Shown: positions 921 to 56,496 of the stretch, in pieces
How the letters are laid out: each line of letters begins with the position of its first letter
Position numbering within the stretch: position 1 is the first letter of the stretch
NCBI GenBank assembly: GCA_030141605.1
Contig: JAQGDQ010000198.1
Span: 1 to 64,000, forward strand
Direction: 5' to 3'
Length of the DNA stretch: 64,000 bases
Source of the DNA: Tubiluchus corallicola
Lineage: Eukaryota; Animalia; Priapulida
The notes under the pieces: model-generated
Seen by the model: the letters and a program-made list of their open reading frames with translations, nothing else
Told to the model about the DNA's origin: nothing
The model's database searches: none
Translations under genes and position numbers: made by a program

Positions 921-3900
921 TTGTTTTGATGTTTGTGAACTGCGTGAACGTGACATGGGCAACCCGAGTTCAAGACGTGTTCACCTTTGCCAAACTGTTG
1001 GCATTGGCTATGATCATCATCACTGGAATTGTACAGTTATGCAGAGGTCAGTGACCAAAATACGTCTAATTATTCTTCACAAGTACAATTAGCTAATTAC
1101 CACGTCTATTATTATAGTTCAGTTAAAACCATTTACAGAAATCTAATTGATACCAGTGTAACAAAAACGAGCTCGTGTCTGTTTTTTATATCACACACTG
1201 TATGGCTGCTCTGGTAGACAATTAACTGTACAATTTGGCGTTACAGTTCACAACTAATCTACTCTGAGTGCATTATTTTCTGGGTTAGTATTTAACCGCC
1301 AACATAACTACTGTAATGAGTCGAATGAAAATACACCCTTCCCAAGTGCTGGTTCTTTTTATTCGTATTTATTAAGTCCTGAGTCCGGTTTTTCTTTTCT
1401 TATTTATTAAAAGGTCACTATTGTAAAGCGATCAGCAATTAATTTCATGATCAGTGTTAAAGCTTTTTAGCTAACTAGATCTTTGAAGTTTACATACTCA
1501 TCTACAGACACTTCATTTTCACAACGTAGTCTTCACCCTAGTCTTCCTTGACCTTGGCCAGGGCGTTGGTCATTGACAGTGGTCTGTTAACTGAAAACCA
1601 CTTCTGCTAAAAGTTATTTTTTCTTCCTGTCTCACGCAAAACGCGTTTCCTGTTTTGTTGTCAGTCTGCATGTTTCAATTTGAAATGTTGCACTGCTTTG
1701 TTTAAAGTTTGAAACTGGGGCTAACGTACTAGAAGTACTGGCCGGTTCAAACTAACGCAATGAATTTCTATTTCCTGCACTTTCAAATGCCTTTCAAATC
1801 ATGAAGAGTTGCACCGCATGTACGTAAATTTTTTATTAAACTGTGTGATGCATAAAAAACTGTTTGTAATGCTCACATGGGAGATGACTTCAGTAAAGAA
1901 TCAAAAGAATCAGAATAGTGAAAAAGCCTAGCGTTTTAGTTCTGAATTTTGCGAAATACTTCAGTATTCTACTGAACTTGTGATGGTCACAGTTATGAGC
2001 GCAAAGGCTTTGGATAAGCTAATATTACCATGATTGCATCTTCTATAGTAGTGTCTTCCTGTTTTTTCCCATGGCCGGTGCTTTTATGTTGATTATCTGC
2101 CGGATCGAGGCGTTCTAGTATTCCAAGTTTTTGTATTGTACTTAGAAGAATGTAACTGGTGAACCCAGACAGTAGACATTTTACATATTTCACAGTTTAT
2201 TTCTATCAAGGGGAGGGTGCTTTTCTTCGTTCACCCTACATTCACGAAGAGCCTGGTCGTAGATTGTATACGGCGCGCATTCAGAATTTAGAGCACGGAG
2301 AATTAGTAAAGTATCATTCAGAATTTTAGAGCACGGAAAGAATTTTGGAATATGATACGTTTTGATAATTTTCTGTGCTCTAAAATTCTGAATGCACGCA
2401 TAGAACGAAACTGCTAGGTAGTTTCGGCATGTATATCCCAGTTTAATCAAGAAGTACAAGGAAGGGTTTCCTGTGAAGATGACTAGTTGATTGGGTGAAG
2501 TAATTTTATTTCCTTCTCAAGATTATCCCAGATTTGACAAGCCTGCTTTAACTGCCATTGATTATACTCACGCTAGACGAAGAAAATCTATTTTCGTCTA
2601 AAAAGACGATTGAAAGTGTCCTAGATTTGAAAGCGTGGGTGGCTCCCAGTGATGAAATCTTTGTGTAGGCTCAAAATTTGGAGCTATAAGTAGCGTTTAC
2701 CTGGAATCCCGAATGCGTATGAGTTATGTTGATTCAGAACAAATAAAATCCGTTTATATTGTTTTAAATGCACCCTTTTTGTGAGACCTACGTTATGTGT
2801 TTTTTCCTGCAATGTGTTTTCTATTTAATTTTTATATGCAGCTATTCCGCAAGTGGATAACGCATAACGCATTCCGGGTGCTAGGTAAACGCCACTTAAG
2901 TGACGTTTATTTAGTACCCGGAATGCGTATGCGTTATGAGGTCCTGATTCCGCGGAATAGATAAAGTGTGTTTATATTGTTTTCAATGCACTCGTTTATC
3001 TGACCTGCGTTATGCGTTGTTCTTTTTCTGCAGTTATTTCTAACGATTTTTTATTCCACAACTATACGGCAGGCGGATAACGCATATCGCATTCCGGATG
3101 CTACATAAAGTACAGAATGAGCGAATTCTTGTCACGTGACGTCACCTATCTTTTTCATGAAAAACTTTTCGTTTGCTAGTTTTTATTAAAAACTCATTCT
3201 CCTTTGTCAGTTAATGTAACTAATAAAACTGGTTAATAGTTCGTCACTCTTTGTTAAAGAGTTAAGAACGAGTCCGCGAGAGCACCAAGCAGAGGATGGC
3301 ACATGAGGGGTGACGAATTTATATCATTTTTTTCTAACATGAAGGGCGACCCCTCAAAACCATGTAACCAAGATATCAAATCGGTCGAGCTACTATTAGC
3401 AGAGAAATGACCACATCAGGAAATTGACTTCAAAAGAGGCAAAAAATCGCTATTTCCGGGGGTTATTTTAACTTTTTCTCCTGTATAAACTATTATAGAT
3501 GGGTCGATATAAGTTGGCTGGTACATAGACTCAGACATTGTCTTCTGATATCCTAACTTTTTCTGACATACTATTAATAGTATCAGAGAACGGGATTTTT
3601 CAAATTCGGCTCTTTGGGAGTTCGAGTCCAGGGAGAGGTTAAGTTGTAAGGCTCATAACTCGCCCACTGCGGGGCTACAGAACTTCTGGTTTTCATGTAT
3701 GTGTTAACCATCATCCTCACTAATAATATAAAAAAGAAAATTCGCTGGAGCCTGTTTCAGTATTTAGTACTGGCACTTTAAAATTTCTCAAAAATCAGCA
3801 AAATTCGCCTTTTTTGTAGTTTTTCAATATTTTTTCTATCTATATGCTGGATTATAAGTGACAAATTTGTATTCTAAATTTCATGAAAATGCACGAGCTG

Positions 3901-6900
3901 AGATAATATCATGAATGACATTATATAAAGGGGGCACTGTTAGAAAAAATTGCCATATCAACACACTTTTTTTGCTTTCCATAGTAATTCCGTCCATGTG
4001 TAAAAAGTAGACATACTTGGCTCAGGTCGTATATGACAGTAGACATTTAACCTGCATTTTCTGTGACTAGTGCTCTAATTTCCTAGTAGCAATAGATTTC
4101 TTTGCCATGGAAATTGCTAGAAATTTGCGAATTTCATCTTAAATTGGTTTAGTTATGTTGGAATTTTCATATGACTACAAATATAAATAATTGCCTCTGG
4201 ATTTCAGGACAGGACATCATGCATGCCCCTAGTACCGAGTCCGACCCTGATTCAGGGCATTCTCTACACACTGAATCACTAATGGATACCAGGAAAGACT
4301 AAACAATAAGCCCTCTAATAGAAAAGAAGTACCGATTGTTAAGATTGAGAGTCATTGCTAGCGAAAGAATCTGACAACACTTGGTGTATACATAAAAAAT
4401 AGAAATCCATTCATTTTTATACATCTGCTCATTTTTTATACTTTTTATATGAATAAGCTTCATGGCTATACATAGAAGATTATGAATATCAGTACAAAAA
4501 TGAAAAACTACAAAACTCAGTCAGAATTATTTTCTCTAAGTCCAAAATACTGTTCTTATTGTAGCAGCATAAACCTATCACTGAAGAGTAGTACAAGTAA
4601 TCAAAACCATAATATCTAAACAATAAAGAAAGAATTATCGATGCAGGTAGATTATCGCTAGAAGATAGATACAGAAATATAGACAAATATATCATGGGGA
4701 AAGTGATAAAGTGAAAATCTTACAGTCTAAACATGAGGCAATATAAGCATATGGGCCGCTTCTAGGGGGATGGCGGTGATATTTAGCTCAGAAAATTTTT
4801 CTTTGCCCAAAATTTATTTGTGGCACCAAATCGATACTTCTGACAAAAAATATTAATAGTGTGATTGAATGATTGCGCCAATGGGACAAAAATTTTCGAT
4901 GTTTTACAGTCAAAAAATCACCGGACAAACGATATCAAGTCTGTCCCATATTTTTTGGGCATTCGCTCAGATTTAGGGCAATTTTCTTTGTGTCCTGGCT
5001 TGTACGCCTATGTAAGACAAGGAGTAATAACTAGGTAATAACCTGTACATAACATTTACAAAGCATAGAAAATAAACAGTACATAAAACATTTTCCAGTC
5101 CTTGCAAGAAGCAATTTCCATTCCATAGATATTTTATTTTTTTAAGATTGGAAGCGCTCCAAATGCGGTCCAGTGTCTTTAGCACAGGCTAATAGATTCG
5201 CAATATTCGTTTCGTGCGGATAACTAGTCAGAATACCGCATTTAACACTGGTAAACATCCCAGAAAACGAACATTTTAGTTCAGCAGTGGCCGCCATCTT
5301 GAATGATGGAGTCCAATCCTGTCGGTAGTTTAACCAATGTGCTGGCCAGGCCCCTAGTTGCCAAAGATGAATATTTATGATGTTTTGAACTCTTTTGACA
5401 AGATTTGACAACTCATGTTTACCTACACGAAGCTTTTTGGTGAACGTTGTTACCTATATTTTCACCCTGATATATGCCTCTTTCAGGGGTCTTTTACAAT
5501 AGGGTGGAAATTCGCTCCATCGAAATTGTCACTGCAGCACATGCTCTATTCACATACATATCGATATTTTTGTCCCCGCCCCCGCAGTGGGTGAGATATA
5601 AGACTTTGAAATGACTGAGTATTTGCATCTTGTGCGTGATGCGAGCTTAAAGACCCCCAGTAGAGCCGAAAGAGGGGGGTTTGGGACAAAAGTCGAAAAG
5701 TCATTTTGGAGAAGATAACAAGATCCAATACTGTGCAGAGTCAGATCTATTCAAACTCAGTAGTTGCTGCATGACTAATCCTTCAAATATGAGTACAAAA
5801 TAGAGAAAAATTGGCATTTTTTCATGAAAATCGGCCTATGCCGTACCTCTGCTACTATGAGGAGTTGGGCTTAGCGGATTCACATAGTGAATACTAGTGA
5901 CTAGTGGACCTCATACCCGAACTTTGGAATCGGTTTACCTAACCTTGTGCCGGAATTTTTCGATTTTGCATGGTCTTCTCGCGGACGCGTTCTTAAACTT
6001 TCCTTGACGGTCTGTTGAAAGTTAGGACTGTCGTCTGTAAAACATTCAATGTTAGCAATCTCATCTGATCATTATTAATGTTATCACTAAAGTAGCTGAT
6101 GCCGCAGACTGAATTCTACGACAGCCAGCTGGCGTAAAGAGTTAAAAGATAGGGCACTAATTTTATCTCAACCTTGTAAACAAGTTGGTTAATTTTATCA
6201 TGGCTAACTCTGTACGACTGAGGAACGATTGCGGCACCATAGTGTTTTATACTAATCTATCGTTCTCATGTCTAATCTGAGTGTTTTAATCTGATTGCAA
6301 AATCGTGCATGACAAACGTACATGCAGACGGCAGATCCGTCTAACAATGAAAATGCTCTACAGCGCTTGGAGTTTTCAGCACTGGTTTATATTAGAACTC
6401 GTTAACCTGGGTTTTACCTCTAACACAGTTTAATTTTTTACGAAGTGAGAAACTATACACGGCAACTGAGTTTGTTGAATTGATTACATGGTTGAATAAA
6501 ATTGTAAGACTGTATTTTTTTCTATTAAGAGCCTCGAGCTATTGTATCTCTAGTAACATTTAATTTAATCATTTAATACGGTAATTGGTTGTGTAAATTG
6601 TTGCTCACATAGATTTACTCAGTTTAGTATACCTGCGGGCTGTGGCTAAAACTTCGGTTTTAATTGATGTTGTTAGTACTTTCCAGCCTCTCAGCGTTGA
6701 GTTGAGTGAACGTTCATTGATTTTGGCTCTTTGCCAGGTATGAACTCACGAACGTGTCACGCATTGCAGGTTGTTAATGAACGTCTTATTGGCTTCATTT
6801 AGGCTATAAATCTGGATAATTAATTCTGTACTTATGGCCTCTTGTGCGCTTGAGACGATAGAAATGTCAAAATTGCAATTTTTAGACAAACGGGACGAGA

Positions 6901-9900
6901 ACACAAGCCTCTCAATGTTGATAACATTTTATATGATGTCTATTATCTCTGTATTGTGGCTCTGGGTGTTTTAACTTCATATCAATAACCGTTTGATCGC
7001 TAAACACCGTAAAACTCAGTTTTCTTGCTGTCCCTAATGAGCACTCTGAACAACAAGTTGTTATTGGTTTGGTGATTGCTTTTGAAATATCGTCTCCGTT
7101 CTTGTTTTAACTATATCTTTTTGGTTCAGTTTAAGTTAGATTTCCAGTCGGTTCACAAAATTTTATGTGAGACTGTAATTAATCAAATTAAAAGTAAAGT
7201 TATTAAGTATCACTCAGTATTAGTAACTGTCAGCTGCTTCAAGTGACATTCTGCGATTAACCAATCAAATTACTGCTAAACAACGAAAACAAATTAGTTT
7301 TATACGTGCAAGTAATTTTTGCTTCACATGAATTTTATATTCTCAATGAGAGCCCTATATAGTCTACTCTTGTCAGATGCTGGTAGTTTATATAGCTACA
7401 CCACTGTTAAAGTGTTAGTGTTGCATTTTATTGTATTATTACACTAGCAGTGCCCTCGATTCCAGGAAAATGAACTGATAAAACCAGTTTTAACCAGCTT
7501 CTGCCGGTTCTGTGCCATTAGTCTGGGTCAGTATCATGGAACTGTGTCATTAAGGAAGCCAGAATTATTACTGCCATAAAAAGTTCTGGGTTAGTCTTGT
7601 ATGTAATTTTACGTAAAGTCATTAGACACTGTAATTACGAGATACTTATGACATTAACGATAGTCTGAATTTTATTGCGTTTCACGAAGAAGTCGTATCA
7701 ACAAAAATTTTATAGCGCTAAACGCCGCAAAACAAATTTTGTAGCTATATGTGTTAATAAATGCTGTTTCAGATTAAATAATTTCATACTGGTGACAATT
7801 GTTGTACTAAGAATGCAATTACAGCGTCCCAATCGTGGGCAGGTTGATGATTAGTTGTGTAAATTAAATTAGCATTATTGGTTGCGGAGAGCCGTGTCAC
7901 GTGACCACGAGCTGTCATTTTCAGAACTCTCTCAATCTCGCGGGTATTCTAGCTGTTCTTGTCTCCCTATTCATAGCAGTGATTGACCAAGCAACCGTAC
8001 GTAAGCCAAACATAATGCTCAAAACTTTCTGATTTGTCACTATCCGCTGATTTGTAAGTTTTATACAGTTTGTGCAGTTACATTCTTGCGAGCAAAATGC
8101 TTTTATTTACTTCAAAAAGTCAAAATGGTTCATACTAAATTTGAAACGTGTGATTCGTTCTGTTGCATGAGACGTTGATAAAAAACTTCTAGTAGCATTA
8201 GTGACCTGCTATGTCCCAAGAAGTCATGTAATTCAAATCACAGTCTACAAATAAGACGAAACTTTGAATCTTCATACACTGAAGAACTACAAACACACCG
8301 TATGTGTCCTGTGTAAATTTATCGATATTTATATTTATCGATAGTGCAAGCACCTCAGATGTGCTCCCTACTAGTGCAGTATATGGCATGCCATTATCTG
8401 CAACATGCAACAACAGGTATCATAGTAACACTTAGGAACCTAAATCGTATCGCAGTTAAATAATATTACTTGTACTAGTGAATAAATGTATAAAATAGCC
8501 TATTTGTCTTCGGTTACACTTCATCCTGTCCCTTTTCCCGCCTCTTTCAAATTGACTAGCGAACATCACGTGACTGACTGCCTAGCAATGATACGAATAC
8601 TCAAAGCCCGTCTTCTTTCTTTTTGATGTTTTTCCGGTAATAGCTTGTTTTACTCTATTTCAGCTTCTCCTTTTGGTTTTTGCTCCATTAAATTGTCATT
8701 TGCTGCTCATACACACAATCATTACTTATCACTAGGGCTTCTAAAGTTACTGTCAGTTTGAATCAGTTGGATAATTCATTGTGGAATTTGTGAATGACAT
8801 TTTATTTTTCTGCATGGTGTAATGACAAGACATAGTTCAGTGTTGTTAAAAGTGCATGGTGATTCGCCTCTATAAGTTTTACTTAAATCAAAGTGTGTAG
8901 ATCAATGTATTATAGTCGATTAGTTTTAAATGTTAGCTAGTAACTTGGCTGCGTGATTCTTAAACTTTTTTATTTAGCTCGTGCATTACTTATGTTAGGG
9001 ATTTTTATATTTTTCTTTCAGTTTACCTGTATAAGTTGAACAGAAATTGTGATTTTGCTGACACATTGATTGTGGCTGAAATCAAACAATTGTTGTCCAT
9101 TAACTAAGAGTGCATGCATCTTAATCCATTTTATGCCACATTGATGACTTATCAGCAACACAGCTTTTATGTCTGCTTTGTACAGTTGCCCATTGCCAAT
9201 TCACTATTCTATAATTGCATGAATGTGTATTCACCTTAACTGGTGATTTGCGTTTTGCGTTTTCATATTTCATGTCCCACTGTGTTTTAGGTCAAACACA
9301 GTATTTTGAGAATCCGTTTGAGGGCACACAAACGAACATAGCTCAAGCTGCACTGGGATTTTATTCTGGCTTGTTTGCTTATAATGGCTGGTAAGATCAC
9401 ATGTCATGGTAATAATGGCAATCCCTTTCTTGTTGTTACATGGACGATAGACTAGAATGTTAACACATTTCCTTCAGTTGTGTGTTCACACACGCTTCCT
9501 AAACAAAAACTGTCAAGCCACAAGAAATAATGCTTACCTTAGAAAAGTTGCACAGAATTACAATATTGGGTGTATTCCTGTTGTTTTCTTTCATTCTGAT
9601 CTTTATGCCCTGAAATTAGTCGTGCACAGGACAAGAACAGTAGTGATCCCAAGATTGTGCAATAGCTTGTGTCTTGTTTTATGAACAATATACAAGGGCA
9701 TTCCTTATCTTATTAAATTAACAAAAAGTGTTGCTGTTATCATTTTATTTAGCCGGACCACAGTTTTAAGAAAGTTCTCATTTTGTGATTTTTGGTCTGG
9801 TAAATCAGTAAATGCTTTGTTATTTCCCCACCCCTAGATCTTACTCTGGACCTCTTTTTTAGTCACCATAACACTGTTAAAGTGTACTTATTCTTATTTA

Positions 9901-12900
9901 GCTTTTTTGAAAACAAAATCCATGTATTAAACTAACAACATAGTAAAATATGAAAGACACTAGGAGGAAATAAGATATCTTCAGATGAACAATTTAAGCA
10001 ACTACCGATACATAGCTGTTGTGTGTTTAAACCTGCCAAATGTTTTATTGCATAATGTTAAGGAAAACAAAATTCTTTATTCAGATTAACTACGCTACCA
10101 TAATTGAAAAATTACATTAAATGCATCAATTTTGCCCAGTTTCCTTTATACCTGCGATTTTGTGTTCTTTTACATCTTTGGCTAGTATGGAGAAGTGTTA
10201 CTTAATTGTATTTGATGGTCTTTTATAACCAAGAGCAAAGTACTAAACGGTAAACCATAAAACTTGTTTTAGAATTGAGAAGCGGCCACAATGTTGAATG
10301 GGTTCAAATTCATTTAGCACCTGAAATTGGTGGTGTATTGATCCTCATTCTTTATAGCTTTTATTGTCTCCTTATAAAAACTATGCTTTGTAAAACTCTC
10401 CGAATAAGATAAACAGCACTCACAGCAGTTGTAATTAAGTTAAAAACTTGGCATTTTAGCATCTAAAATTTTAGATACTTCAGTATAAAATTTTACAAAG
10501 AATTCTCAGTTAGGCCTGCTAGGGCATAAATTACGTGCTTCATGAAATTTAAAACAGTAATACATTTTAAACAGTAAAACAGATTTTACTTATGTCATTA
10601 AAATGACGTTCTGTATGCCTGTCATTTAGAAGTATTTATGACTTTCTCTTTCTTTGAGTACTGCAGAATGAAATTAAAATTTGGTAATAGCAAAATTTAA
10701 ACACCAAAGTTAAATAAATATTTGTAACATTAAAACCCATAAACTACTGCTGCTACCATTTCATTGACTAACATCACCTTTCTGTTCAAATATAAACAAG
10801 AATAATGGTAGGCATTTCCTTCGTTATGCACAGATTTGTAAATGCACTTTCACTGCTTTGCTGCTTCTGTGTAGAAATGTTCTAGTTCACACTATTCAAG
10901 TTTATCGTCGTGGGCTTAACAACAGGAAAGCATTTTGCCATTATTTTTGGCATTATTCATGCAAATGTCATTTAAACTAAATGGATTATTTCAGGAGAAG
11001 TACACTATTTCAAGAGTCCGTGGGCAGACAGTGCAACCTCTATTACTTCGGTAGCACTAGCATTTTACTCCGGGCTATTCGCTTATAACGGATGGTAAAA
11101 AATCTACCGTTTATCGACTTGTCAATTGTGATGGCTTACTGTCTAACAAGCTATTTTTCCAATAACTTTGGTAGCTTACACTCGCATAGAACTAAAACAG
11201 TGCAATATATGTGTGCTTGCAGAGCAAAATGTCCAAAAGACCACAGTTAGGCTTTTCTGGCAGTTCGTATATACTGACTCTGCGTTTCATGAGGATCGTT
11301 TTGATACTAAGCTCATCGCTCTATGTTATTTCTAATGAGATCATGCACATTGAAGTTGAAGATAGGGTGCGAACTGAAAAACAATTTTCAGAAAACCACT
11401 GTTAAAATTTGCCATTGTTTTTGTCACGTTTCTATGAAAATGCTTAGCAAACGTACTAAAGTGAGGTTGCTGTGGACTGTGCAAGAACATATTGAAGTTT
11501 AGTTGAAATACAGTAGATTGCTCTTCTAGACAAAGATCTGGGCTGGGGAAACGGAAAAAGCACAAGCAAAATGACTTCTTCCACGAGTTGTTATCGTATT
11601 TTGAAAATACTAGTTTTTCACAATTGCAATGCTAGGCAGAGCAGGTAGGGTTATAAAATTAAAACTTTTTGGTATTTTTCAAACAATTTCCTGATGCTTT
11701 GATGCTAGAATATAAAACGTCCAATACATTTGGCATTTGTTTTAGAAAAAAACTGATATTTGACCCAATTTTTGATGCATTCGGCTTTGAAACATTATAA
11801 TGTAGTTTAACTATGCTGACTTACAGACTGTTTTGGTATGCAAGCACACATGTATCAAAGGCGAAGCATTGATATTGTAACTCGGTACTAATATAGTGGT
11901 AAACAGCTTTGCTAATTTACCACCTTTTCAGAAAAATGCAGGTCTGTAAAGCTAACATGGAATGACTAGTTGGTGAGTAGTTTAGCTTGTAGTTAGCTAG
12001 AAAAACTGAAATGATGAAAATATTGACCATCTAACCGGAAGACAACAAAACTACTAATATGATTGTGCATGCTTACGTAACACACATCCTCAGTTTTGCA
12101 GTAAGTTGTGCATTTGTAATATTCTATAATTCTAGGATATTGCTGTGTTTTCGGAAAAAAATGAATTCAATTTTTAACATTTTGTATGCTTAATTTGGTT
12201 GCCTTCCTGTGATATTCTCACTAGCCGTCTATATGTAAAACTATACTAAATTTAAAACAGTTATATTTCAAAATAATTCTTAATAACAAGAATAGTAATA
12301 ATGAATAAAAAATCCCAAAAATGGAAACAAAGAAAAAGAAAGGAAGCTTAAATGTTGTTATCTTTAACATTTACTGTTCGATTTCATTTGAGAAGGCTGT
12401 TATGGGCTTTTGTGTATGAATTTTTAAATTAAAATTGTTATTTCTTTTTAGGAATTATTTGAACTTTGTGATTGAAGAATTGCAAGATCCTGTAAAGTAA
12501 GTTGTGCTTCACTATGTTTGGCATAACATTTACTTGAGTAATCTATACTCAGATGTCCAATCTTGTACCAAATGAAACCGTGTACCAAAAGTGCCGCAAA
12601 AGGCGAGCCCAAATAGCATGACCAAAACCACAATTCCCACTATCGTGAATGTCATTTTTTATAACAGTGTAGCAGTTTCTCAGCACACTATATGCTCGTC
12701 AATTTTGTGCTGGATGTATTTGTACCATATTAGTTAAGCAGTAAATTTTGCTTACATGTATTGAAATTGAAAAGCCGAAAAGTTACCTAAAGTATTCTAC
12801 ATTTATTTCTTAGTGACTGTTTGGTAAGATAACTGTGCAGCCTGATAACAATGTTAATTGTTTTTAATGATTTTGCAGGAATTTGCCAAAAGCTGTAGGC

Positions 12901-15900
12901 ATTTCTTGCGCTATTGTCATCTTCACGTACGTCATGACAAATGTGGCATTCTTGACTACCGTGTCAAAAGAAGAGATCTTGTCTAGTCCAGCTGTTGCAG
13001 TGGTCAGTAGTTTTGTAATTATAAGAAATTATGGTGACATTTCACATTTTCCAGGTAATGCTGTCACCAACCAAAACACTGACTCTCACGTGGTATTTGG
13101 ACTGCTTCCATTGTTAACACCGTGTTTTGTCAAGCTAATGCTGAGTTCATTTTAAGAGGCTGACCATTCTGGTCTCAGTTAGAAGTTTGGAAGAAAACCT
13201 GATCTTTAAACACAAAAACAACTTTATACATAAGGAATTAAATGTTGAAAGCATTTGGTTGTTAAATTTTTATGCACACTTTTTTGCTAATTTTTTTCTC
13301 ACTGATCCATCTTTATAAGTGGAGAAAACTTTTTTGCTAATTAACAGTGAGTTTACAAAATGTTACTAACATAACAGGCGAGTTTTTGTTTCACTGAGTT
13401 ACTGTATTTTTTATTTTGTTAAAGTGTGAAACTATGATTATAGTGAATAACAGCACATGAATCGTGTTACAAGATCTATAAAATAACCAGTTGAGAATTC
13501 TTAACACAAGTCAGTGAACTAGCAAAAGTGGTACTAAAAAGTGTAAACTAACTATGCGCTGTTTGCAGCTGTTTGCCGAGAGATTATATGGTGTCATGGC
13601 GTGGATTATGCCTGTCTGCGTTGCCATGTCCACATTCGGGACCGTTAACGGAATCCTTTTCACCTCTGCACGCTTGTTTTATGTCGGCGCACGAGAGGGA
13701 CACATGCCTGAAATTCTCACTATGATTCAACCTAAACTACTGACTCCATTGCCAGCTGTTTTATTCATGGTAAGCATACACACTACATACCTGAACATGA
13801 TCAAGTTTATGTTCCTTCAATGCTTAAGGGCTGTCATCTATCTTTATGAGTGGACGAAACTGTTGTGCTAATTAATGATGAGTTTATCAGTAAAATTGTT
13901 ATGCTCAATAGTAAAATATTATTAACACTACTCATTACTAATTATATTACTTATACAATATTGTGCACAATATTACTAATACAACGAGTGTAAAACCAAA
14001 AAATGGTTTGCAAAATGCTGCAAAAAGGTCTTGCCCCTTTTTATTAAATGGAGTTTTTGTCAGCTTATGTACCAAATTTGTAGAAAGTAACTCGAATTTT
14101 TTGGTTCATCATTTTAAATTCTGTGACTGCACGATCACAACTCGAAATTGATTCCACAATTAGGGGTGAGCATCGAACGTTCGAATTGAATTCAAACGCC
14201 CGAATTCGATTCGAACGAGTTTTTTTAATTCGAACTAGATTCGAATCCAAAACTATAGATTCGAATAATTCAGCACTTCAGTCACATACGTTCTTTATCA
14301 TTAAAACATCATGGAACATCTTGCAATTAGCATAATTTAGCTGTGATTTCTGTGCACAATTTTATATCAATTACTAGTCGGTTTATTGCAGAACACAATC
14401 TAGTGATATGCATGATCTTTGTAAGACTAATTTTTACTGGTGGTTCGAAAACTTGTTCGAAAATCTATCAACCTCAATTCGAATTCGGTTCGAATTCAAA
14501 ACACTGAAGTTCGGTTCGATTCGAATTCGAAAGTCACAAATTCGGTTCGATTCGAATTCGCTTTCTAGTAGAGAATGCTCACCCCAATCCACAATGTAGT
14601 CTTGCTCCAATTTCTATTGATAATGGCATTGGTTTCGTTTCCATAACAAAGCTAATAAACACAAAATTTAATTGCTAAACTACGTGTGCTTTCCTGGGAG
14701 TTTTAGAGTTTCATTTCTCTAGCATTTTCATTTAAATTACATTCTCTGTTAGTTCCAGGTCTGTTTTGAATGCTGTCACTTGTAGGCTATTATCAGCTGT
14801 AAAATATCAATTGTATAAACAGCACGTTATACAGCCTGTATGACATTGATGAAACATTATGTCTGCTATTATATTTTTTGAAAAAAGTTTTATGGTTTCC
14901 AGTTTCCTTAAAACTTATTTTGTATCTCAAGCTACAGTTAATGCAACTTTATATGACGAACTTTGTAAATTAGTGGAACTGTATTTTTTGAATTTATAAA
15001 GATATGAGGGTAACTGATTTGATATTACTAAATTGATAAGTTTATTTATTGGATAGTGGTGTGATTAAAATTTAGAAATAAACCAGGAAATTTTGAAATA
15101 CTTGTGTCATTTCCTGAGAGTGATATATAGTTTTGAATATTTTTTGGTAACATTGCCTAAACATGTTATTTATGTGAGATAGTGATGCCATGTGCTTGTT
15201 AATATTATTTATTATTCCAGGGATGTATATCATTACTGTACCTTGCATCAAGTCAGATTTATGCATTAATCAACTACGTTAGCTTTGTGTGTTGGCTTGC
15301 AATTGGCCTTGCTGTGTTCAGTGTATTATGGTTTCGTTGGAAGAGACCTGATGCTCCTCGGCCAATTAAAGTAAGTTCATGGGTGGATTGCAATTGCAGT
15401 ATTTTATGTATATGAGACAATTTTTATTATATGTTTTGGCGTATTATGGGCTAGAGTCAAAGACTCATGGTGAATGGTTCCATGTAGCAGGAACAGGACA
15501 TAGCTCATTGGTCAAGGGTAATTGTCTGAGGTGAGACCTTTCTAAGTCAATAAATTGTAGTGATACTCAGTTCTCCTGTGGACATTATGAATTAATCCTG
15601 CCCTCCCAAATACAAAACTAGCAGAGTGCCAAGCCCCCAGTTCAATGAGTTTATATAAATGAACAAGGGTAAACATTTTTGAGGATGTTTATTTACGAGA
15701 GTAAGAGTCTTCGTTGTGTAAATTTGTTTCTTGCACAGTTTGGAGTAATTCTGGTGGTCCTGTGCTGAGTTGTATGATTTATCGCTTTAGATTTAGTCCC
15801 ATTTAACAAAACAGAAATGCGATTTTACAAGTCCTAAAAAAACTTTTGGTGATAAAATTGTTTGGCATTTGTTTTACATATGTACATATTACTTATTGTA

Positions 15901-18799
15901 TATGTGAAAATGTGTTTTTAGTGCACATATCAGAAAACTTGCAACTCTAGATCCTGATCTCAAGTACAATAACATCCGTCTTATATTTTGAGATCTTTGT
16001 AGGTGATCATCAATTTTGAAATTTACATTTTGCACTAAACATGTAAAAATTATAAAAATGGAACTATGATAAGCAAACATGGTATCATTAAAGCTATTTA
16101 ATTAGAATTTTGATTTTTTTAGGATATTAAATATTCCTCATTTACAATGTACAGTATTAATTGCTTGCTTTTGATTGATCACTACTCCTACACAGATGAA
16201 TTTTCTTTTCATGGAACAGAAAATTACATTTACATTTCTTACATTTTCTTAATTTTTGATGTAGAATTTTAGATTTTAAGATTACATAAACACCTAATTT
16301 TACATTCTATTTCACATAAAGAATGTTTCAAAATAAAATATGAGAATATGTGTGTTACTCATTTTTTTAACATCTTTTTATCTGTATGTTGAAAGCACAT
16401 ATATACACGCAGACAATTTTTTCCAAATTTGGCATTCAGGTTTTTCTTTAGAAGTCATAAAATAATAGGACTACTGTTCAGTAAAAAAAAACTATGCACT
16501 TGTTGTTACGACTATTGGGAGGCTGAGAACTACTAAATTTTAACCTAAACTATTCTGTGCTTTCCTTACATTGTAACTTAACATTTTAGTAAATTCCTGA
16601 TTTTAGGATCTCTTACTGTGGCTCAGTAAGAGCCAGCTATACAGCAAAAATCTAAACAATACTGCTGTTTTCCTAATTTTATAATTTTATTTGTTTGTTT
16701 TCATATTATTTGATGCTGGGGAGGTTTATTATTTGTTAGCCATTTGTTATTATTTATGTTTACCTATTTTGCCATTCCTATAGTAAAAATGAATATTCTA
16801 TGTGACTGGGAAATTTTGCAGAACCCTAAATTTCATAATATTATAGGTACAACGTTTTAAATTCAGATGTTCAGTTGTTCACTCACATAAATAGGAAATT
16901 AAAGTTAGAAGTATTTTCTTACAAACTAGTTTAATTCAATCTGATAGCAGATTTAAGTAAACATTTAGTGTTAGGTTGCATAATATTTTTTTATATATTT
17001 TTTCAGGTTAATCTGATTTTCCCTATTCTTTATGTGCTTGGCTCCATTTTTCTAGTAGTATTGCCTGCGATAGCCAGTCCGATAGACACAGGTTAGTAAC
17101 ATCTTAGATTCTAAGATTATGCATCTGCATCACATGGTAAAAAGCTACACTGTTTGGTGTAATTAGTCTGTGTGGAAAAATAGTGTGCACTTTTTGCGTC
17201 TTTTTTCGGTGTATAATTAGTCTGTGTTGCACTGAGGAGTGCAGGTCTTAAACACATGAAGCAAAGGATTATGCAATCTGGCAGAAGACTCTGTACCAGT
17301 GTTTGGTGCTTAGTGAGACATCACTTTTGCCAGGAAGGCAATAATACACACTGACGTGGCGCTAGATGTGGACGGCAAATGGAATACAACTCAACTGTAC
17401 CCAGTGTTACAGGAGATCATAGCAAAATATTAAGAAGAGTTCATTGGCAAGCCGGTTGATGAAGGAACCTCTAGCTCCGCATCTGAGGCCGCTGAACAAG
17501 TTTCTGATTGAAAAGCAAAACATTATTACTGTCATTTAAATTTCATTGGAAATAAAGTCTATATTGGAATGAAAAAAATTCTATGAAATTAGTCTGTGCG
17601 GAAAATTAGTCTAACACAGATTAATTTTGATGGTACGCATTAAAAAGTTATTTCAGAATTTGTCTCAGGCAGACTAATTACACAAGTAGTTGTGCACATA
17701 TTTTTAAGATTTGAGTTTAGACTAAAACTGAATTAAGTTTTGTATAGATTTTTAATTGTGCAAATTTTGTTAGCATTGATTTTTGTACTGAATTGAATTA
17801 GCTCCATTGAAATATGTTAAGGGACATATTTCGACATTGAGCAAAATCTTACTTCACTCTAGAAAGGTTTTGTAAGTTTTATAACACTTGAAATTAAGTT
17901 TAAAATCAATAAACATATTTAAAAGAAAGTTTGGACTGGTTACACGAAGAGATGGCTGTGATTCCTACAAGTTTACTTCCAGTTCATAACATTTCTTAAT
18001 AAATAGCAACATGCACATGAACGACTTGAGCTGTCTGTAGTTTTATTGTTAATTAAATATTGGATTTTTCGCACATATGTAAAATGTACCGGGGGTAACA
18101 AAGGTAAACTGTGAACAATTTTGTTTGCAACACACTTATTAGCAATTAGGGGTAGAATAGGCAAATTAATAGCAACCTCCCTAGTAAAGCATCTTGATTA
18201 ACAAGTGTGGCAAATAGACCAAAGTAAGGAAACAAAGTGAATGACATTGACTTTACACACAACCCGTTGTGTCCTATATAAACTTAGACAACAAATCAAC
18301 ATATTCATTTCGCAGCACTGTTCATTGAAATGCTACATTCATGAAAAAGTGCAAATAAATTGCCCTGCTTAATTGTTTGATTTTCCTTCTCATGAGTACT
18401 TACTGTCAGTTTTGTAATGTGATTATGGTTAACTAGTTTTAGTGAATGTTAATAATGCTTTATGTATGTGTACAGGTATTGGTGCAGTCATCATGCTGTC
18501 TGGTATTCCGGTTTATTACATATTCTGTTGGTGGAGAAAGCCGTTGGTCTTGAGAAAGAGAATTAGTAAGTTGAAATTTTGAAACTAGAATTTTTAAATT
18601 ATCCCTGGGTAAAATAATACTGTTTGACGTTGTTGCATTTTTTTACTAAACATCTAAAAATCATGGCACCTTTATACATATTGTAAGATTTTGTGTGCCT
18701 GAAGTGACTTAAACTAGTATTCTTGTGTTTTTTACAGATGGACTAACAATTGCAATGCAGAAGTTACTGCTAGTTGTGCCTGAAGAAAAGGAAGTATAA
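921..18799 (+). CDS. SLC7A5/SLC7A8-like: SLC7 L-type amino acid transporter light chain (LAT1/LAT2-like), 5'-partial, spliced
   Basis: GT-AG exons with consistent phases: 921-1046 ([35 protein letters not shown]), 9291-9390 OR 10995-11094 (..[11 protein letters not shown]), 12452-12496 ([15 protein letters not shown]), 12879-13002 ([10 protein letters not shown]..), 13569-13769 (..[26 protein letters not shown]), 15221-15370 (..[11 protein letters not shown]), 17007-17091, 18476-18565, 18738-18799 (stop TAA). These motifs are typical of the LAT subfamily of SLC7. The N-terminal exon(s) lie before the window. Confidence 0.96.
2273..2399. mobile_element. Small MITE-like inverted-repeat element
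   Basis: gcgcgcattcagaattt(t)agagcac at left, a second direct copy near 2314, and inverted gtgctctaaaattctgaatgcacgc at right. Confidence 0.55.
2689..3112. mobile_element. Head-to-tail dimer of a ~210-bp MITE joined at a TA
   Basis: Copy 1 (2689-2896) has ~40-bp imperfect TIRs agtagcgtttacctgg..gaatgcgtatgagttat / ataacgcataacgcattccgggtgctaggtaaacgccact; TA at 2687-2688 and 2897-2898; copy 2 starts at 2899 with homologous TIR and interior. Confidence 0.75.
3266..5992. mobile_element. 2.7-kb non-autonomous DNA transposon with TTAA target duplication (Kolobok-like)
   Basis: TTAA|GAACGAGTCCGCGAGAGCACCAAGCA ... TGCATGGTCTTCTCGCGGACGCGTTC|TTAA (22/26 TIR match); purine-purine terminus fits Kolobok better than piggyBac (CC/CY ends); no transposase ORF. 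Confidence 0.75.
9291..9390 (+). CDS. SLC7 alternative exon A (100 nt; extracellular loop 3 plus first half of TM6)
   Basis: ttttag|...|gtaaga, phase 1 to phase 2, encodes [34 protein letters not shown]. Confidence 0.93.
10995..11094 (+). CDS. SLC7 alternative exon B (100 nt paralog of exon A)
   Basis: tttcag|...|gtaaaa, phase 1 to phase 2, encodes [34 protein letters not shown]; no stops or frameshift. Confidence 0.9.
11285..11850. mobile_element. Dispersed repeat family, copy 1 (probable old non-autonomous DNA transposon)
   Basis: Collinear similarity to 26135-26535 (ttttgatac(t/c)aagctcatcgc; ctgttaaaatt.gccattgttttt; gctttgaa.cat.ataa.gtagttt; gttttggt.tgcaagcacacat). Confidence 0.7.
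14161..14587. mobile_element. hAT-type MITE (427 bp)
   Basis: TIR TAGGGGTGAGCAT...ATGCTCACCCCAA; perfect 8-bp TSD tccacaat (14153-14160, 14588-14595); subterminal TTCGAA repeats. Confidence 0.9.
17147..17695. mobile_element. Internally deleted DNA transposon with subterminal AATTAGTCTG repeats
   Basis: Perfect 14-bp inverted repeat gtgtaattagtctg (17157-17170) / cagactaattacac (17670-17683), further internal copies, and a relic coding-like interior ([25 protein letters not shown]). Confidence 0.6.
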
Positions 18800-25694: not shown

Positions 25695-28600
25695 TTAGAT
25701 AACCATTTGCTGTGTTGACAGTGGAGCTTGATGAATTTCACTCTCTGCTCCTTGTGCATGCAAAGCTGTTTCCTTGACACGTTCCTCGTGAAACGTTTCC
25801 AGTGCTCTGCGTTTGGCGATCTGAAAATTTTTGCCAACTGCAACCAATGTTGGTACGATTCTAGGAATATGACCTGCATATCCTGGCAGGGCTGCTTCAC
25901 ATCGCTGTAAACGGTTCTGATCTAGTAATGGAAATAAAGCAGGTTTCGTATTTTTTGATCTGTTTAAATTTTAACTATAATTCTGATTCCGTTGTTAGGC
26001 GCCATAGAATCCTACTTTGAAAACGGCGCGGTACAAAAATTTTTGTAATAATACATATGTGCGCTTGCACAGCAAAATCGTCCATAAGTTAGCAATTAAG
26101 CTTTTCTAGTTATTCACCTATCCCGAATCTCCATTTCATGAAAATCATTTTGATACCAAGCTCATCGCACTACGTTATTTCTAGGCTGAGATAAGTTGAG
26201 CAGGCTGAAAAACATAACCTTGAGAAAATCGCTGTTAAAATTAGCCATTGTTTTTTGTCGTGTTTCTACAAATGTTGATTGCTATGGACTTTGCAAGAAC
26301 GCATTGATGTTATGTTTAAATCCAGTAGAGGATTTCTGACGAAGATCTGGACTTGGCTACAGAAAATACCCGAAGCAAAATGATTGCTTTCATGAGCCAC
26401 TACCGGATGTATTTAGCATTTGTTTTTGTAAAAAAAATGACAGTTCACCAAATTTTGGTCCTTTCTGCTTTGAAGCATCATAACGTAGTTTCAACTATTC
26501 CGACTTATGGACGGTTTTGGTTTGCAAGCACACATATAACAATAATAATGTGATAAATTTTCACTCAATTGCAATACAATATATAAAATCCCGCAACTGT
26601 CCTTCTTTTCGTATATGGCTGGACTGGCCATTGACCAGATTTTTTTTCAAATGAGCACTGAAAAATTAAATAAATGAAACACTGAAACGATTTTATGATT
26701 AGGGTTTATGGGTGAGTGGATAGGCAAGCTAATATTTTCATGTGTACGGCGCTACCGGGGTTCGATACTCTGTTCGCAAACATTGGTTGTTTTTGTACAC
26801 GTTCGAACGTAGCTGAGACATCTGCCAGTTCAACTTTCAGGCATATCCTTGATAATGCGCCAAGTTTCAGTCATGCTAGAACCATTGCATAGGGTACGCT
26901 CTGCTGAATGCTAGATTCAGACTTGGAGTTTGCCAAAATGTATAAAAATATGAAACTTACTATTCGTCATTAGAATAAGCGTAGCCGACCCTGATTAACA
27001 TATTAGTATTTAGTCACGATTTTGTTTTGAAATTTTATAAAATTTATGAAACCATTTTGTAAATTGTTCAAATTACAATTTAAAAATTCAAATTATCTTA
27101 TAAATTAAAAAGCCGATCATTGAGGTTCGGGGCTTTTCCGCTGCGCAGATGGTGGCTTTTAATTTACGCACAGAAAAAACAAAATGCTAACGTTGCACTG
27201 AAAACTAGCAAATAAACGTACCCGCAAGTTTATCGTATTTATCAATCTGAAATTGTTTGAGAATCCGAGATACATCCTGTCGAGTGATTTCGGTTAGAGG
27301 TTCGAGTCTATGAAGCGTGGACGTCTCGACCAAGCGTCCAATGTGTGTCTGCGGCTTATTTATGCCTGAACGTATGCGGAAAAAATTGTTGATACCATTG
27401 CTACATTCCATTGCAAAAGTGTTGCCAACAGTGTGTGATCTGCCTGGTACAAATCCTACAATATAAAGCAAAAGTGATTTCATTACGGATTATGCGTAAT
27501 GAGTGTTTTATTATAATGTTCAACAGTCCACTCACTCAGGTGTGTAGCATATCAATCAGATATCTATCTGCTTATATATGAGATAGAGAGGGGATGAGAA
27601 GCGAGACAGAGAGAGAATGTGTGATGTATTACATTTATTTATATCGTTCATGTTTAAAAGATCAGGAACAACAAAATTGCTTCTCCTGCCACAAAAACAT
27701 TCATGATGACGCTGCTGTTATTAGTAAATCAGCGACAAGTATAAAATCTCTGCTTCGTGTTGTATATAAGTTGAATACAAAAGTCCCTGGCGCCATATAA
27801 AGTCAGTTAGTCAGTTAATCCACAATGTTAACGACGGTTACTTCAGCATAAAACACTCAACATTATACTTTTATGCTACTGTTACAAAATCGTTTTCTAT
27901 GACTTGCAGTCTTACGTATTTGTGGCTTTGATATTCAGGGAATTATTATCGGAATTTTCCTGTGTTATTCTCCAGCCTTAGTTGCTTTAAGAAGAACGAC
28001 ATCAGATTTGCTACTTTTTGCCTCTATGGCATAGATACTTCTTATCGTTAGTCATAAAAATTCTTTTATTTGTAACCCCTCGCTTTCTGTCAAGGCCAGT
28101 GGTTTTGTTTTGGGCGATCATACTTAAACAGCAATGGTAATGGTAGTCTATTGAGTATCACACATATAGTGGATGATTTTATTTTTCATGATGAGAGGAT
28201 AAGGAATTTAATTTAATGCACGTATTTCATGTACGCTCACAATAACATTTAAACATGTATGCTTATTTCGCATATTTTGAAGGTTAATGATTATTAAAAC
28301 TGGTCAATTTACCTGTATAACCAGGGATCATGTGCACTTTGACGGCTACATCAGTTTTTTTACGCGTTACCAAATCTGGTAGACTCGCTGATTCCAATTT
28401 AGTTGTTATTTCTTCATCAAATTCGTCGTTAAACCTAACACACTGACTTCTGCTTCTGAGTTTAGCCTATTAATAAGGCATTGTTTTGTACTATAATAAA
28501 AACACTATACGTGCGTAGTTAATCGAATGCAGCAAGTAAAACTCAATACATTTAACAAACGCGCATGCAATTCTACTAAAAATTTTTACAGTAGTGGTGC

Positions 28601-33257: not shown

Positions 33258-48308
<15,051 letters not shown>

Positions 48309-52800: not shown

Positions 52801-55800
52801 TTTTGCATAAAAATAAGAGTAGAAATGGAATGGCTTCAACTGTCTTAAAGAAGCCAAGAGAAATTAACTCTAATACAAAATAGTCATTTTACTGTATGAT
52901 TGCATAAATGTTTATTGGCTTTTCTTCATCAATTGCAGCTGAGCTGTAGTCAAAGCAACACAAAAATTTATCCCTGGGTCATAACCAAACTTCTGATGAG
53001 CAAATAGGAATGAATACTATATTAGCAAAAACAAGTTTTACTGGGCTTGTGCTACTACTGTTAAAACATCCTTGATAAAAATTGAACTTGAGAAGCGAAC
53101 ACATTCAAACACCACAAAACACAGTACTCTTTTAAATTCATAGATATGCAAAGCTAAACATGGCTTAATTTACAGGCCCACCAATGCTTCATATTCATGT
53201 GAACACAAATTTTTTGTCAAATGTGCAATATGCAAAACCACTGCTAGATTAATGGTTTATAGAGACTTCATTGAGACTTCATTTTAGAATGCAAAGGCAT
53301 TACCACTCGTACAAAAATATTTAAAGCTGCTTAATGCTTTAAAGCTTATTGTGACCACTATTGCTGGGAAAAAAATCGTATGATACATTAAATAGTAAAA
53401 TCCACAGTTCATTAAATCCTAACTTCATTTTGTAATCCAAATTGCACTCTGAGAAGACAACAAAATTGTCTTAAGACCACATGATTGTCCCGCATTTCCA
53501 ATTCAGCTATTTCAGCAATTTTGTTTTAAGCACATTTTAACACCTTTGCATTTTTTCACTTAATGACCTATAACAACAAAACTGGTGATGATAGCAACAA
53601 ACTGGGAATTACTGTATTAGCTGCTGAAATGCAACACGTGCTGGAAACACTTCACCATAAACTGCAGAACAGTGACAATTCAAACAGGCAAACTCACCGA
53701 ATTCAGACAAGACATTGAAACGCATCTTGGAAAAAATCTACTGAAACAGACTACACTGGACATATTTTGACTTTATACTTGCATGCTATATAATGGTAGA
53801 CCTATTGCATCTTCTTATGCATGTATACATAATTAGGTCAAACTGAAATGCCTAATCTAACTGAGAAGCGATTGCACACATGAGAACGTTGATGACCCAA
53901 ATATATGAATGCTGAATCATCGCTGATGTTGAAGTTATATGTATTGTAAATTTGTAAAATTGGCATGCAGTTTGTCACATGATTTAAAAGGTAATCGCAC
54001 CACAGATAAAGGATACATACTTTACATGAATTACTTTAATCATTAGAATCCTACTTTATTGGACTTACTGATTGTTAACAATCTGCACATTGTATCAAAC
54101 CTGCAGTCACATTCACCAATTGGCAAAAGTGACCACTTAGTTATATCATATAGCATCGAAGCTTCCTGGGAAGTAAAAATTACTAATCATAAGAAATATA
54201 ACTTTTACAGAGCAGATCATACAGCTATAAAAAACTACTTAAATTCAAAAGATTAGGATGTAATTTTTCGAGATAAAGATTTATTTACCTGCAACAGTGC
54301 ATTGGAGGAAACATGGCAAAATCAAGGCAACAGTACAAAACCAAAGTGGTTTAATAATGAAATAAAATTGAAACTTAGGCAGAAGAAAGCTGCATGGAAA
54401 AAATATCAAAGAACAGCTTCTCGTGACAATTATGAATGATACGCTCCAACTAGGAATGATGTTACAATATTAGTTAGAACAGTGAGAAGAAACTTTGAGC
54501 AAAAATTGTCAGAAGAATGTGGTAGTAATCCTAAAGCGTTCTGGGCATATGTAAATTCTAATTTAATGAAAAAAAAGAAGGAGTAAGATCCTAAAAAGAG
54601 AAAATGGTAGTATTGCCACTACTGATTAAGAAAAGGCTAATGAATTACAGAATTTTTTCACATCTGTTTATATAAACGAAGATACAATCCAAATTCCTCA
54701 ACTACTACCAGTAACTGAGTATAAACTTGATGTATGTAGCATCAGTGAATTAGAACTTAGAACAAAAGTTAAAAAAATGAAGGCTAATGAATCTATGGGC
54801 CCTGATGGAATCCATGCAAGCATAATGAAGAACAATGAAGATATCCTTATAAGTCCAATGCTACAAATAATGAACCAAAGTTTATCCAGTGGTATAATAC
54901 CACCGAGTTCGAAAATGGCCAGAGTTTCTGCTATCCACAAGAAAGGTGAAAAAGACTTAGCAAAAAATTACAGACCTATCAGTCTGACATCAGTTGTTTG
55001 TAAATTGCTAGAAGGAAAACAAAGGAATAAAATCTACAACTTCATTCCTGAACATTATCTCATTCGTGATAGTCAACACAGCTACAGAACTGGCAGATCT
55101 TGTATTACAAATCTATTAGTTTCACTTAAAGAATGGATGGATTTACTTGATAATAAAGGCGAAGTTGATGTTATCTTTTACGATTTTTTAAAAGCGTTTG
55201 ATCGAGTACCCCATCTGAGACTGCTTTAAAAACTTGAATCATACGGAATTTGTGGTCACCTGCTAACATGGATTAATAGTTTTCTCTGTGGGAGAAGGCA
55301 ATGTGTAGTAGTCAATGGGCAAGAATCAGAATGGGCAAATGTGACCAACGATATACCACAGGGAAGTGTGCTTGGACCTATTTTACTTACTATTTACATA
55401 AATGATCTTCCTGAAGTTTTCAACTGCGGTAAAACCCTGTTTGCAGACGACATTAAAATATATGGAAAAGCATGTTGCCTGGTTGATTTTGAGATCATGC
55501 AGAATAATATTAACTATGATGAGCAATGGTGTCGCCAATGGCAAATGGAATTTAACACCGAAAAATGTAAGCTCCTGACTATTGGAAGGCATGATATTGC
55601 AGGTCGAACATATAAAATGGCACATGGACAAAGTTCTACAGAAATTATAAGCGTCACAGAAGAAAAAGATCTGGGTATTACCATTTACAGTATGCTTAAT
55701 TTTCAAACACATATAAACAACGTTGTTAATAAAGCACATGGAAGACTGACTTTAATCAAAGGTAGTTTCTCTTATCTTGATGGATCTATGATGACCAAAC

Positions 55801-56496
55801 TATATAAATCAATGGTTTGCCCTATATTGGATTATGGTGATCTGATATGGAGCCCAAATCGTCAAGACATGATAAGGAAAATTGAAAGTATACAACGTCG
55901 AGCTACCAAGACTCGTACCTGCTGTTTCTCATTCACCATATGCTGCAAGACTTAAGAGTCTAGACCTTAGAACTCTGAAGTACAGATGCAAAAGACAATA
56001 TTTAATCCAAACATTTCATATCCTTAAAGGTATAAAAACCATCAACAGCGAAATATTTTTCCATCGACAGACATACCATGGTACAAGAATTCACTCCTAC
56101 AAAATTAAGAAGAGAACAGTTTCCCAAAGGTGGAGTAGGAGGTTCACATTTGCAAGGCGAGTACTTAATGAGTGGAACACACTGCCTGACACTGTAGTCC
56201 AAACCTCCAATCCTGCACAGTTTAAGTCTCGTCTCGATAGACACTGGAAATGCAATCCTGAAAAAATATACACCCCAGGTTGCCACAATGGCAACAAGAA
56301 AACTTGTGCTACGCTTCAAGATCGCAGTGTGGCCACCTATTTTGTTCATTTTTTATATTAATAGGGTAAACAAGGAAGAGTGGAGAGTTCCATAATCTAT
56401 TTATGCTTAAAATCTATCCTTCAACGGTAACGGAAAGTGCGCGTGCGACGACTCTGATCACGTGAAATAAAACATCGCAATGCATTACCTTGTCAT
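49872..56496 (-). CDS. NAA50: N-alpha-acetyltransferase 50 (NatE catalytic subunit), complete, 5 coding exons, ~177 aa
   Basis: Exons 56496-56489 (ATGACAAG|gtaatg), 52741 (or 52753)-52602 (RIELGDVTPHNIKQLKRLNQVVFPVSYNDKFYKDVL), 52109-51990 (YNDIVVGAVCCR..YIMTLGCLAPYRRLGIG), 51216-51150, 50070-49872 (LHVQINNE..FYKKYGFEI..HYYKRIEPADA). Phases consistent, 534 nt. Confidence 0.97.
54048..56432 (+). mobile_element. Decayed, 5'-truncated CR1-group LINE in NAA50 intron 1 (antisense to host)
   Basis: Endonuclease C-terminus (LDLL..PIGKSDH); RT motifs GPDGIH, NYRPISLTS, KAFDRVPH, PQGSVLGP, FADD; C-terminal RVLNEWNTLP..FKSRLD; several stops and frameshifts; aacggt-like tail near 56423-56432. Confidence 0.93.

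Follow-up and report, generated by a model that had tools for sequence, protein, structure and literature searches.

Tandem copies of the exon for the sixth transmembrane helix in an SLC7 LAT-type gene of the priapulid Tubiluchus corallicola, probably used in a mutually exclusive manner

Why does a transporter gene of the priapulid Tubiluchus corallicola carry the exon for its sixth transmembrane helix (TM6) twice, and are both copies used? The question is raised by a stretch of 64,000 nucleotides (nt) from assembly GCA_030141605.1 (contig JAQGDQ010000198.1, positions 1 to 64,000, forward strand), called the window below. In this window, a gene of the SLC7 family's L-type amino acid transporter (LAT) branch contains two homologous exons, A (9291-9390) and B (10995-11094), between constitutive upstream and downstream exons that we call U and D. 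[quoted passage not shown]

The tandem duplication of this exon was confirmed. Each copy is 100 nt long, is bordered by AG and GT and runs from phase 1 to phase 2, exactly as the initial annotation had described them. The two copies share 62/100 bases and 17 of the 32 in-exon residues. In a six-frame search of the window with profiles from 210 homologues, the TM6 exon was present in exactly two copies; the upstream, downstream, TM8 and last exons, the four others searched for, each occurred once. Gene models with A alone or with B alone comprise 327 codons each, and their sole stop is the natural end at 18797-18799. Joint inclusion of A and B leads to a premature TAA at 11086, and omission of both leads to a premature TGA at 12460, confirming the frame shift that had been claimed for both cases. 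The pair has structural features of homologous mutually exclusive exons: two adjacent homologous exons with the same length and phases and with intact splice sites, either of which alone keeps the frame. The term "obligately" mutually exclusive, used in the initial annotation, is right for productive mRNA and goes too far for splicing as such, since the sequence does not prove the spliceosome unable to include both exons. Moreover, the frame lock had been overstated as a special feature of the pair. Among 36 metagenome loci, eight intron-bearing ones hold the TM6 exon, each of them once, and two of these eight span the whole interval from the upstream to the downstream exon. In six of the eight, the single-copy exon was measured and is likewise 100 nt with the same ends and phases, so the frame lock is inherited from an ancestral 100-nt exon.

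Judged by homology, the gene is an SLC7 LAT-type light chain. TIGR00911 (L-type amino acid transporter) was the best match for all six exon peptides tested, A and B included. The closest protein is XP_014667469.1 of Priapulus caudatus, with 84% identity over the constant C-terminal part. In a tree of that part (28 rows, midpoint root), the gene and the P. caudatus protein form sister branches (100/99) within a protostome LAT clade (100/97), apart from b0,+AT. The P. caudatus orthologue matched TIGR00911 with an E value of 1e-174 and 581.7 bits, under the cut-off of 701.8, and its record appears to be C-terminally truncated. Of the two marks of such light chains, the TM1 GSG motif and the EL2 cysteine of the heavy-chain disulfide, it has the GSG motif and a cysteine in the TM3-TM4 loop; the corresponding part here is encoded upstream of the window together with the rest of the 5' part of the gene, the first visible exon being 921-1046. 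Human LAT1 (SLC7A5) and LAT2 (SLC7A8) matched the orthologue at E values of ~1e-144 to 1e-146, and the scores of y+LAT2, LAT2, consensus-mutated xCT and LAT1 against it were all within 11 bits. As far as these comparisons go, the protostome clade of this gene is not specifically LAT1 or LAT2. The best structure match of B was xCT (E 0.06), which is not significant.

We then asked which splice forms are seen. Run X2 had been added by its species label and is only presumed to be RNA; it covers 193 nt of the gene in total, in one contig. This contig covers 9331-9390 joined to 12452-12496 and then to 12879, and both joints (9390>12452 and 12496>12879) are GT..AG. The first of them is one of the junctions that the initial annotation had named for a check by RNA reads. 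This shows that a spliced form containing A and skipping B exists. The proposal that one gene makes two transporters is thereby borne out for one half, the joining of A to D with B skipped in one spliced contig; the use of B is what we infer. Another run, X1, is DNA-like and may be the source sample, and it was counted neither way. It agrees with the window at at least 99% over A with its flanks and over both flanks of B, and it has a hole over B.

The divergence of the two copies was examined with the Nei-Gojobori method. Over 32 codons, pS was 0.69 and pN 0.28 (the proportions of synonymous and non-synonymous differences), with a ratio of non-synonymous to synonymous rates (dN/dS) of ~0.19 (Fisher p 5e-4). 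In the final 10 codons of the exon, which are nearly invariant among 68 homologues, the copies differ by 8 synonymous changes over 8 synonymous sites and by none over 22 non-synonymous sites (Fisher p 2e-7), so this core is indeed identical in protein and different at synonymous sites, as had been noted. In 20,000 simulations per setting, a neutral copy retained the core, the frame and the splice sites in 4.6% of the runs at 0.1 changes per site, in 0.25% at 0.2, and in none (0/20,000) at 0.4 and at 0.6, to be set beside a total dS of nearly 1.9 between A and B. The profile scores of A (63.8) and B (62.1) both lie within the range of the 68 homologues (54.6-78.3), and the residue of B matches at least one of these homologues at 31 of 32 positions. 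By codon comparison, these results show that both copies have long been under purifying selection, as the initial annotation had suggested. The intron flanks of A and B match at 22/60 and 20/60 positions and gave no BLAST hit; flanks without similarity indicate that the duplication is old.

What would the exchange of A for B alter in the protein? In the structure that AlphaFold predicts for the P. caudatus orthologue (mean predicted local distance difference test score, pLDDT, 88.7), positions 1-15 of the exon form a loop and positions 16-29 the helix TM6a. The amino-acid differences between A and B number 15, of which 11 are in extracellular loop 3 (EL3) and 4 in TM6a. With LAT1 numbering, taken from an ungapped match of the exon to LAT1 232-256, the TM6a differences fall at 241-243 and 246, and positions 247-256 are identical in A and B. 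The predicted combination of an unchanged binding core with a different EL3 and TM6a is therefore supported by both the exon alignment and the model. Position 246, alanine in LAT1 and part of its gate, is Gly in A and Ala in B. The EL3 contains Phe-Glu in A (Phe in 62/68 and Glu in 45/68 homologues) and Trp-Ala in B (6/68 and 7/68). Both copies have Phe at the position of LAT1 252 and Asn at that of 255.

For LAT1, the roles given to these segments in the initial annotation, EL3 as a contact of the heavy chain and TM6a as a segment of the gate on the extracellular side, are backed by bioRxiv 10.1101/577551, which is cited, as are the other papers here, for the portion of its text that was accessible. 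According to that work, the extracellular gate includes a packing of Ala246 on TM1b, and lysines of CD98hc may be contacted by charged residues of EL3. Transport depends critically on Phe252, and Gly255 shifts the preference to large substrates. The variant A246V of LAT1 lowers leucine uptake (PMC5983779). Because the residues equivalent to Phe252 and Gly255 are the same in both copies, a specificity switch appears less likely than kinetic or partner tuning. By analogy with LAT1, the swap would likely tune gating, kinetics or heavy-chain contact and would not create a new substrate class. A switch of substrate class was considered and is disfavored by the identity of A and B over positions 247-256. 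As a rule, mutually exclusive duplicate exons alter surface residues near functional sites (PMC7954323, accessible part).

The exon was further compared with that of relatives. The annotated TM6 exon of P. caudatus is identical to A at 17/32 and to B at 19/32 positions, while the other exons reach 78-91%; A is identical to a clam homologue at 24/32. With B, the P. caudatus exon has three uncommon residues in common, each found in 4-5 of 52 others, and with A only common ones. A rarity-weighted score ranks it 3/53 for B and 40/53 for A. This likeness hints that a copy other than A may be used in P. caudatus. Among short fragments, 207 matched the P. caudatus TM4-TM7 query, and of the 120 listed none exceeds 68% identity. 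Exon B alone, too short a query, had no match among 50%-identity representatives, and two TM6 motifs in one protein occurred in none of 298 proteins.

We also examined 33 same-species isoform sets of protostomes, hand-picked from 30 clusters (at most 15 members listed for each) and from search matches; they are annotation records, taken without a check against DNA or reads. A swap of the TM6 exon occurred in 0/33 sets. The near misses were a Cherax record with one residue different in the TM6 exon and a tick record with a different next exon. Other parts of the protein are exchanged in this family. In seven of nine malacostracan sets, there is an equal-length swap of the TM8 exon (~residues 292-322), and both types of the block are recognizable across decapods and a stomatopod (P0303/P0305, P0312/P0313, P0351/P0352, P0266/P0385, P0357/P0358, Cherax and Scylla). 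The crustacean TM8 block, which lies on a substrate-lining helix, is on this evidence from records likely a mutually exclusive pair that has been conserved. Two alternative homologous TM1-TM4 halves on one C-terminal half were present in 8/33 sets, seven from gastropods and one from a nemertean (P0015/P0016, P0014/P0064, P0012/P0065, P0216/P0326, P0217/P0329, P0220/P0221, P0224/P0392 and P0222/P0391). Two TM1-TM4 halves occur in tandem in a Pomacea model (P0087) and in a gene model of 759 residues (P0235). No published description of the crustacean TM8 or gastropod TM1-TM4 swaps was found in the literature searched. In many arthropod and oyster records, the last exon comes in two or three homologous alternatives; the window shows a single one.

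How might the choice between A and B be made? The pyrimidine tract of the B acceptor (9/19) is the weakest of 10 acceptors, compared to 14/19 for A, and thus fits a minor or regulated exon. Two routes to exclusivity were found unlikely. A steric block of double inclusion is not expected with an A-B intron of 1604 nt and an AG-free zone of 62 nt upstream of B, and a minor-spliceosome incompatibility is not expected since 0/9 donors fit the U12 consensus. Regarding RNA structure, a predicted hairpin at the acceptor of A was the sole window with a z score below -1 among 12 splice-site windows. A predicted duplex between 9814-9850 and 11526-11565 was reached by 0/120 shuffles but was matched by 2/18 real control block pairs. 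We downgraded it, because real controls were as strong and one of its arms lies inside a repeat. A second copy of that miniature inverted-repeat transposable element (MITE)-like repeat lies at ~26052-26545, with 69-81% identity in the aligned parts. Upstream pairings were at the chance level (13/30 and 10/30 shuffles). A scheme of docking and selector sites would call for competing, conserved intronic pairings around each exon; the one downstream duplex seen here beats 120 shuffles and not 2 of the 18 real controls. Predicted RNA structure may bias the choice between A and B.

Mutually exclusive use would proceed as follows. Splicing includes A and skips B, whereas in some tissue or stage B would take the place of A. 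Exclusivity would arise from splice-site competition, the B acceptor being the weaker one, and mRNAs with both exons or neither would be cleared by nonsense-mediated decay, probably the simplest safeguard. To judge from human LAT1, the swap would alter EL3, which touches the ectodomain of the SLC3 heavy chain, and the outer half of TM6a. The effect would likely be on turnover, apparent affinity or heavy-chain coupling and not on substrate class.

Several observations weigh against this reading. The total dS between A and B, near 1.9, is close to saturation and imprecise, the branch of B is longer than that of A (0.51 versus 0.25), and past selection on B does not prove its present use. The X2 contig, the sole evidence for A and from one run, differs from the window at 8/193 letters, which suggests that it stems from a relative or another population. 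Neither a B transcript nor a U>A or U>B junction was seen in X2, a run that covers so little of the gene that the lack of B there says nothing on the use of B. The exon tree, built on 32 residues, does not settle the grouping: the approximately unbiased (AU) test gave p 0.40 for B with P. caudatus, 0.23 for A with P. caudatus and 0.46 for A with B, and rejected none, so the likeness of the P. caudatus exon to B is a hint only. Moreover, the position of Ala246 is Ala in 45, Ser in 19 and Gly in 4 of the 68 homologues, and EL3 is variable anyway. With all three residues natural at 246 and a variable loop, the two proteins may behave alike.

A rival explanation is that B, long a functional alternative, has since fallen into little or no use in this species. 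A is the only copy seen spliced, in run X2, B has the weakest pyrimidine tract (9/19) and the longer branch, and B could be looped out if the mobile element downstream of it paired with the A-B intron. We consider it unlikely, since B is without a stop, an indel, splice-site damage or a core change, so that any decay would have to be very recent. The intact state of B also bears on whether B mainly serves as a poison exon, whose inclusion with A, ending at the stop at 11086, would lower the transporter mRNA via decay. That stop precedes seven downstream junctions, and nothing found in the sequence bars the A-to-B splice, given the intron of 1604 nt and the AG-free zone of 62 nt. However, a poison exon needs no conservation at the protein level, and B has kept its own frame and core despite saturated synonymous sites, which leaves this role very improbable.

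The alternative TM1-TM4 halves in 8/33 protostome sets raise the thought of a larger, combinatorial switch, in which alternative N-terminal halves, encoded upstream of the window, would be coupled to the selection of A or B. In those sets, however, the swap ends before the exon corresponding to U, which is single here, and the region upstream of 921 is out of view; such coupling would be quite surprising. Least credible is that the pair is an artefact of assembly, with alleles placed one after the other, or that a fragment of a paralogue has strayed in: alleles would be far more alike than 62% and would not have unrelated flanks, and B comprises one whole exon and no more, has both its splice sites and sits in the correct intron and orientation, with no other tested exon doubled. 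Current mutually exclusive use of A and B thus remains our preferred reading. If both isoforms are made, they would amount to chimeras supplied by nature, alike in the substrate pocket and different in EL3 and TM6a only, and would offer a clean test of the share of the outer gate and heavy-chain contact in LAT kinetics. One of the differing positions matches the human disease site LAT1 A246V. In a wider and decidedly tentative picture, which we regard as doubtful, priapulids would switch the outer-gate and heavy-chain-contact module of a LAT via an old exon pair. This would be the third independent exon duplication on the protostome LAT substrate pathway, after TM1-TM4 (gastropods, nemertean) and TM8 (malacostracans), with invertebrates tuning LAT by splicing and vertebrates by paralogues.

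Table 1. Features of the LAT-type gene and of its predicted RNA structures, in window coordinates.
Feature	Position	Strand	Basis and remarks
Exon U, constitutive, upstream; end of TM4 and TM5	921..1046	+	AG/GT, 126 nt; TIGR00911 positions 179-218, E 3e-13
Exon A; EL3, TM6a and unwound TM6; more conventional copy	9291..9390	+	Spliced to 12452 in run X2 contig; 24/32 identical to clam homologue; TIGR00911 E 2e-5
Exon B; intact, more diverged duplicate of A; putatively used	10995..11094	+	Open frame, AG/GT, same phases; conserved core; TIGR00911 E 9e-4; weakest pyrimidine tract
Exon D, constitutive, downstream; TM6b	12452..12496	+	Spliced joints at both ends
Constitutive exon, TM7	12879..13002	+	5' spliced joint confirmed; gene model, family profile
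Constitutive exon, TM8-TM9	13569..13769	+	61/67 identical to P. caudatus XP_014667469.1
Constitutive exon, TM10 region	15221..15370	+	Gene model, family profile
Constitutive exon	17007..17091	+	Gene model
Constitutive exon	18476..18565	+	Gene model
Last coding exon, stop TAA 18797-18799	18738..18799	+	Gene model; single copy in profile search
Predicted 9-bp hairpin, acceptor AG of A in loop; candidate damper of A, weak lead	9279..9302	+	z -2.40, 2/200 shuffles
5' arm of predicted long-range duplex that would loop out B; weak lead	9814..9850	+	Pairs with ~11526-11565
MITE-like element, 25-nt inverted ends, B-D intron; carries 3' duplex arm ~11526-11565	11205..11855		Inverted repeat I7

Repeats were observed elsewhere in the window. 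In the long U-A intron, ~3262-5996 has 30-nt inverted repeats at its borders and a depth of 200-900 in run X1, and is likely a DNA transposon. In the intron after exon 13569-13769, a palindromic repeat of very high copy number lies at ~14180-14590 (X1 depth ~6300). A remnant of a reverse transcriptase resembling that of a long interspersed nuclear element (LINE), with two open stretches (Pfam RVT_1), was found at 54630-55952. A long GA/CT microsatellite (45657-46491) and a short-unit tandem repeat (38155-38562) both yield spurious long open reading frames.

Finally, the pair was compared with known systems. A catalogue of 236 human tandem-duplication events contains five "SLC7A" entries, all of them SLC7A2, and no LAT gene in the accessible part of PMC8373072, so that the initial annotation, which knew of no such arrangement in vertebrate LAT genes, is borne out for the human LAT genes in this one catalogue. 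In titles and the starts of abstracts, no published LAT, invertebrate or priapulid case of such exons was found, a scope that leaves an insect precedent and absence from print undecided. The splicing mechanism itself is ordinary and known; its position, the TM6 exon, was not found in the other LAT genes examined. SLC7A2 of human and mouse is likewise an SLC7 gene with two homologous mutually exclusive internal exons, which cover the TM8-TM9 region. These exons distinguish CAT-2A from CAT-2B and change capacity and affinity (PMC12714141, accessible part), and the gene is listed as a tandem-duplication event in the supplement of PMC8373072. Mutually exclusive exons that change function thus have a precedent within the SLC7 family. 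Unlike the gene described here, SLC7A2 belongs to the cationic CAT branch without the heavy-chain dependence of LAT, its exons of 46-47 residues lie in a later part of the protein and not in EL3/TM6, and both of its isoforms and their functions are established. SLC12A1 (NKCC2) is another membrane transporter whose mutually exclusive exons are tandem duplicates, but it is a cation-chloride cotransporter with three such exons for a different helix, TM2. Joint inclusion of its exons 4a/b/c leads to a frame shift and to nonsense-mediated decay (PMC8373072, accessible part). In Drosophila serpent, an ecdysozoan gene with a duplicated exon pair (4.1/4.2), a downstream pairing of one intron with another promotes the first exon (PMC4691838, accessible part). 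The candidate duplex here has the same geometry; in serpent, however, compensatory mutations were used to test the elements, which are conserved, whereas here one arm lies in a mobile element and upstream pairing is at chance. Related protostome LAT isoforms belong to the same gene family but swap other exons (TM8; TM1-TM4). Compared with human LAT1 and LAT2, both A and B keep the Phe252 position; unlike in LAT1, Asn replaces Gly255 in both copies, as it does in 66/68 invertebrate homologues.

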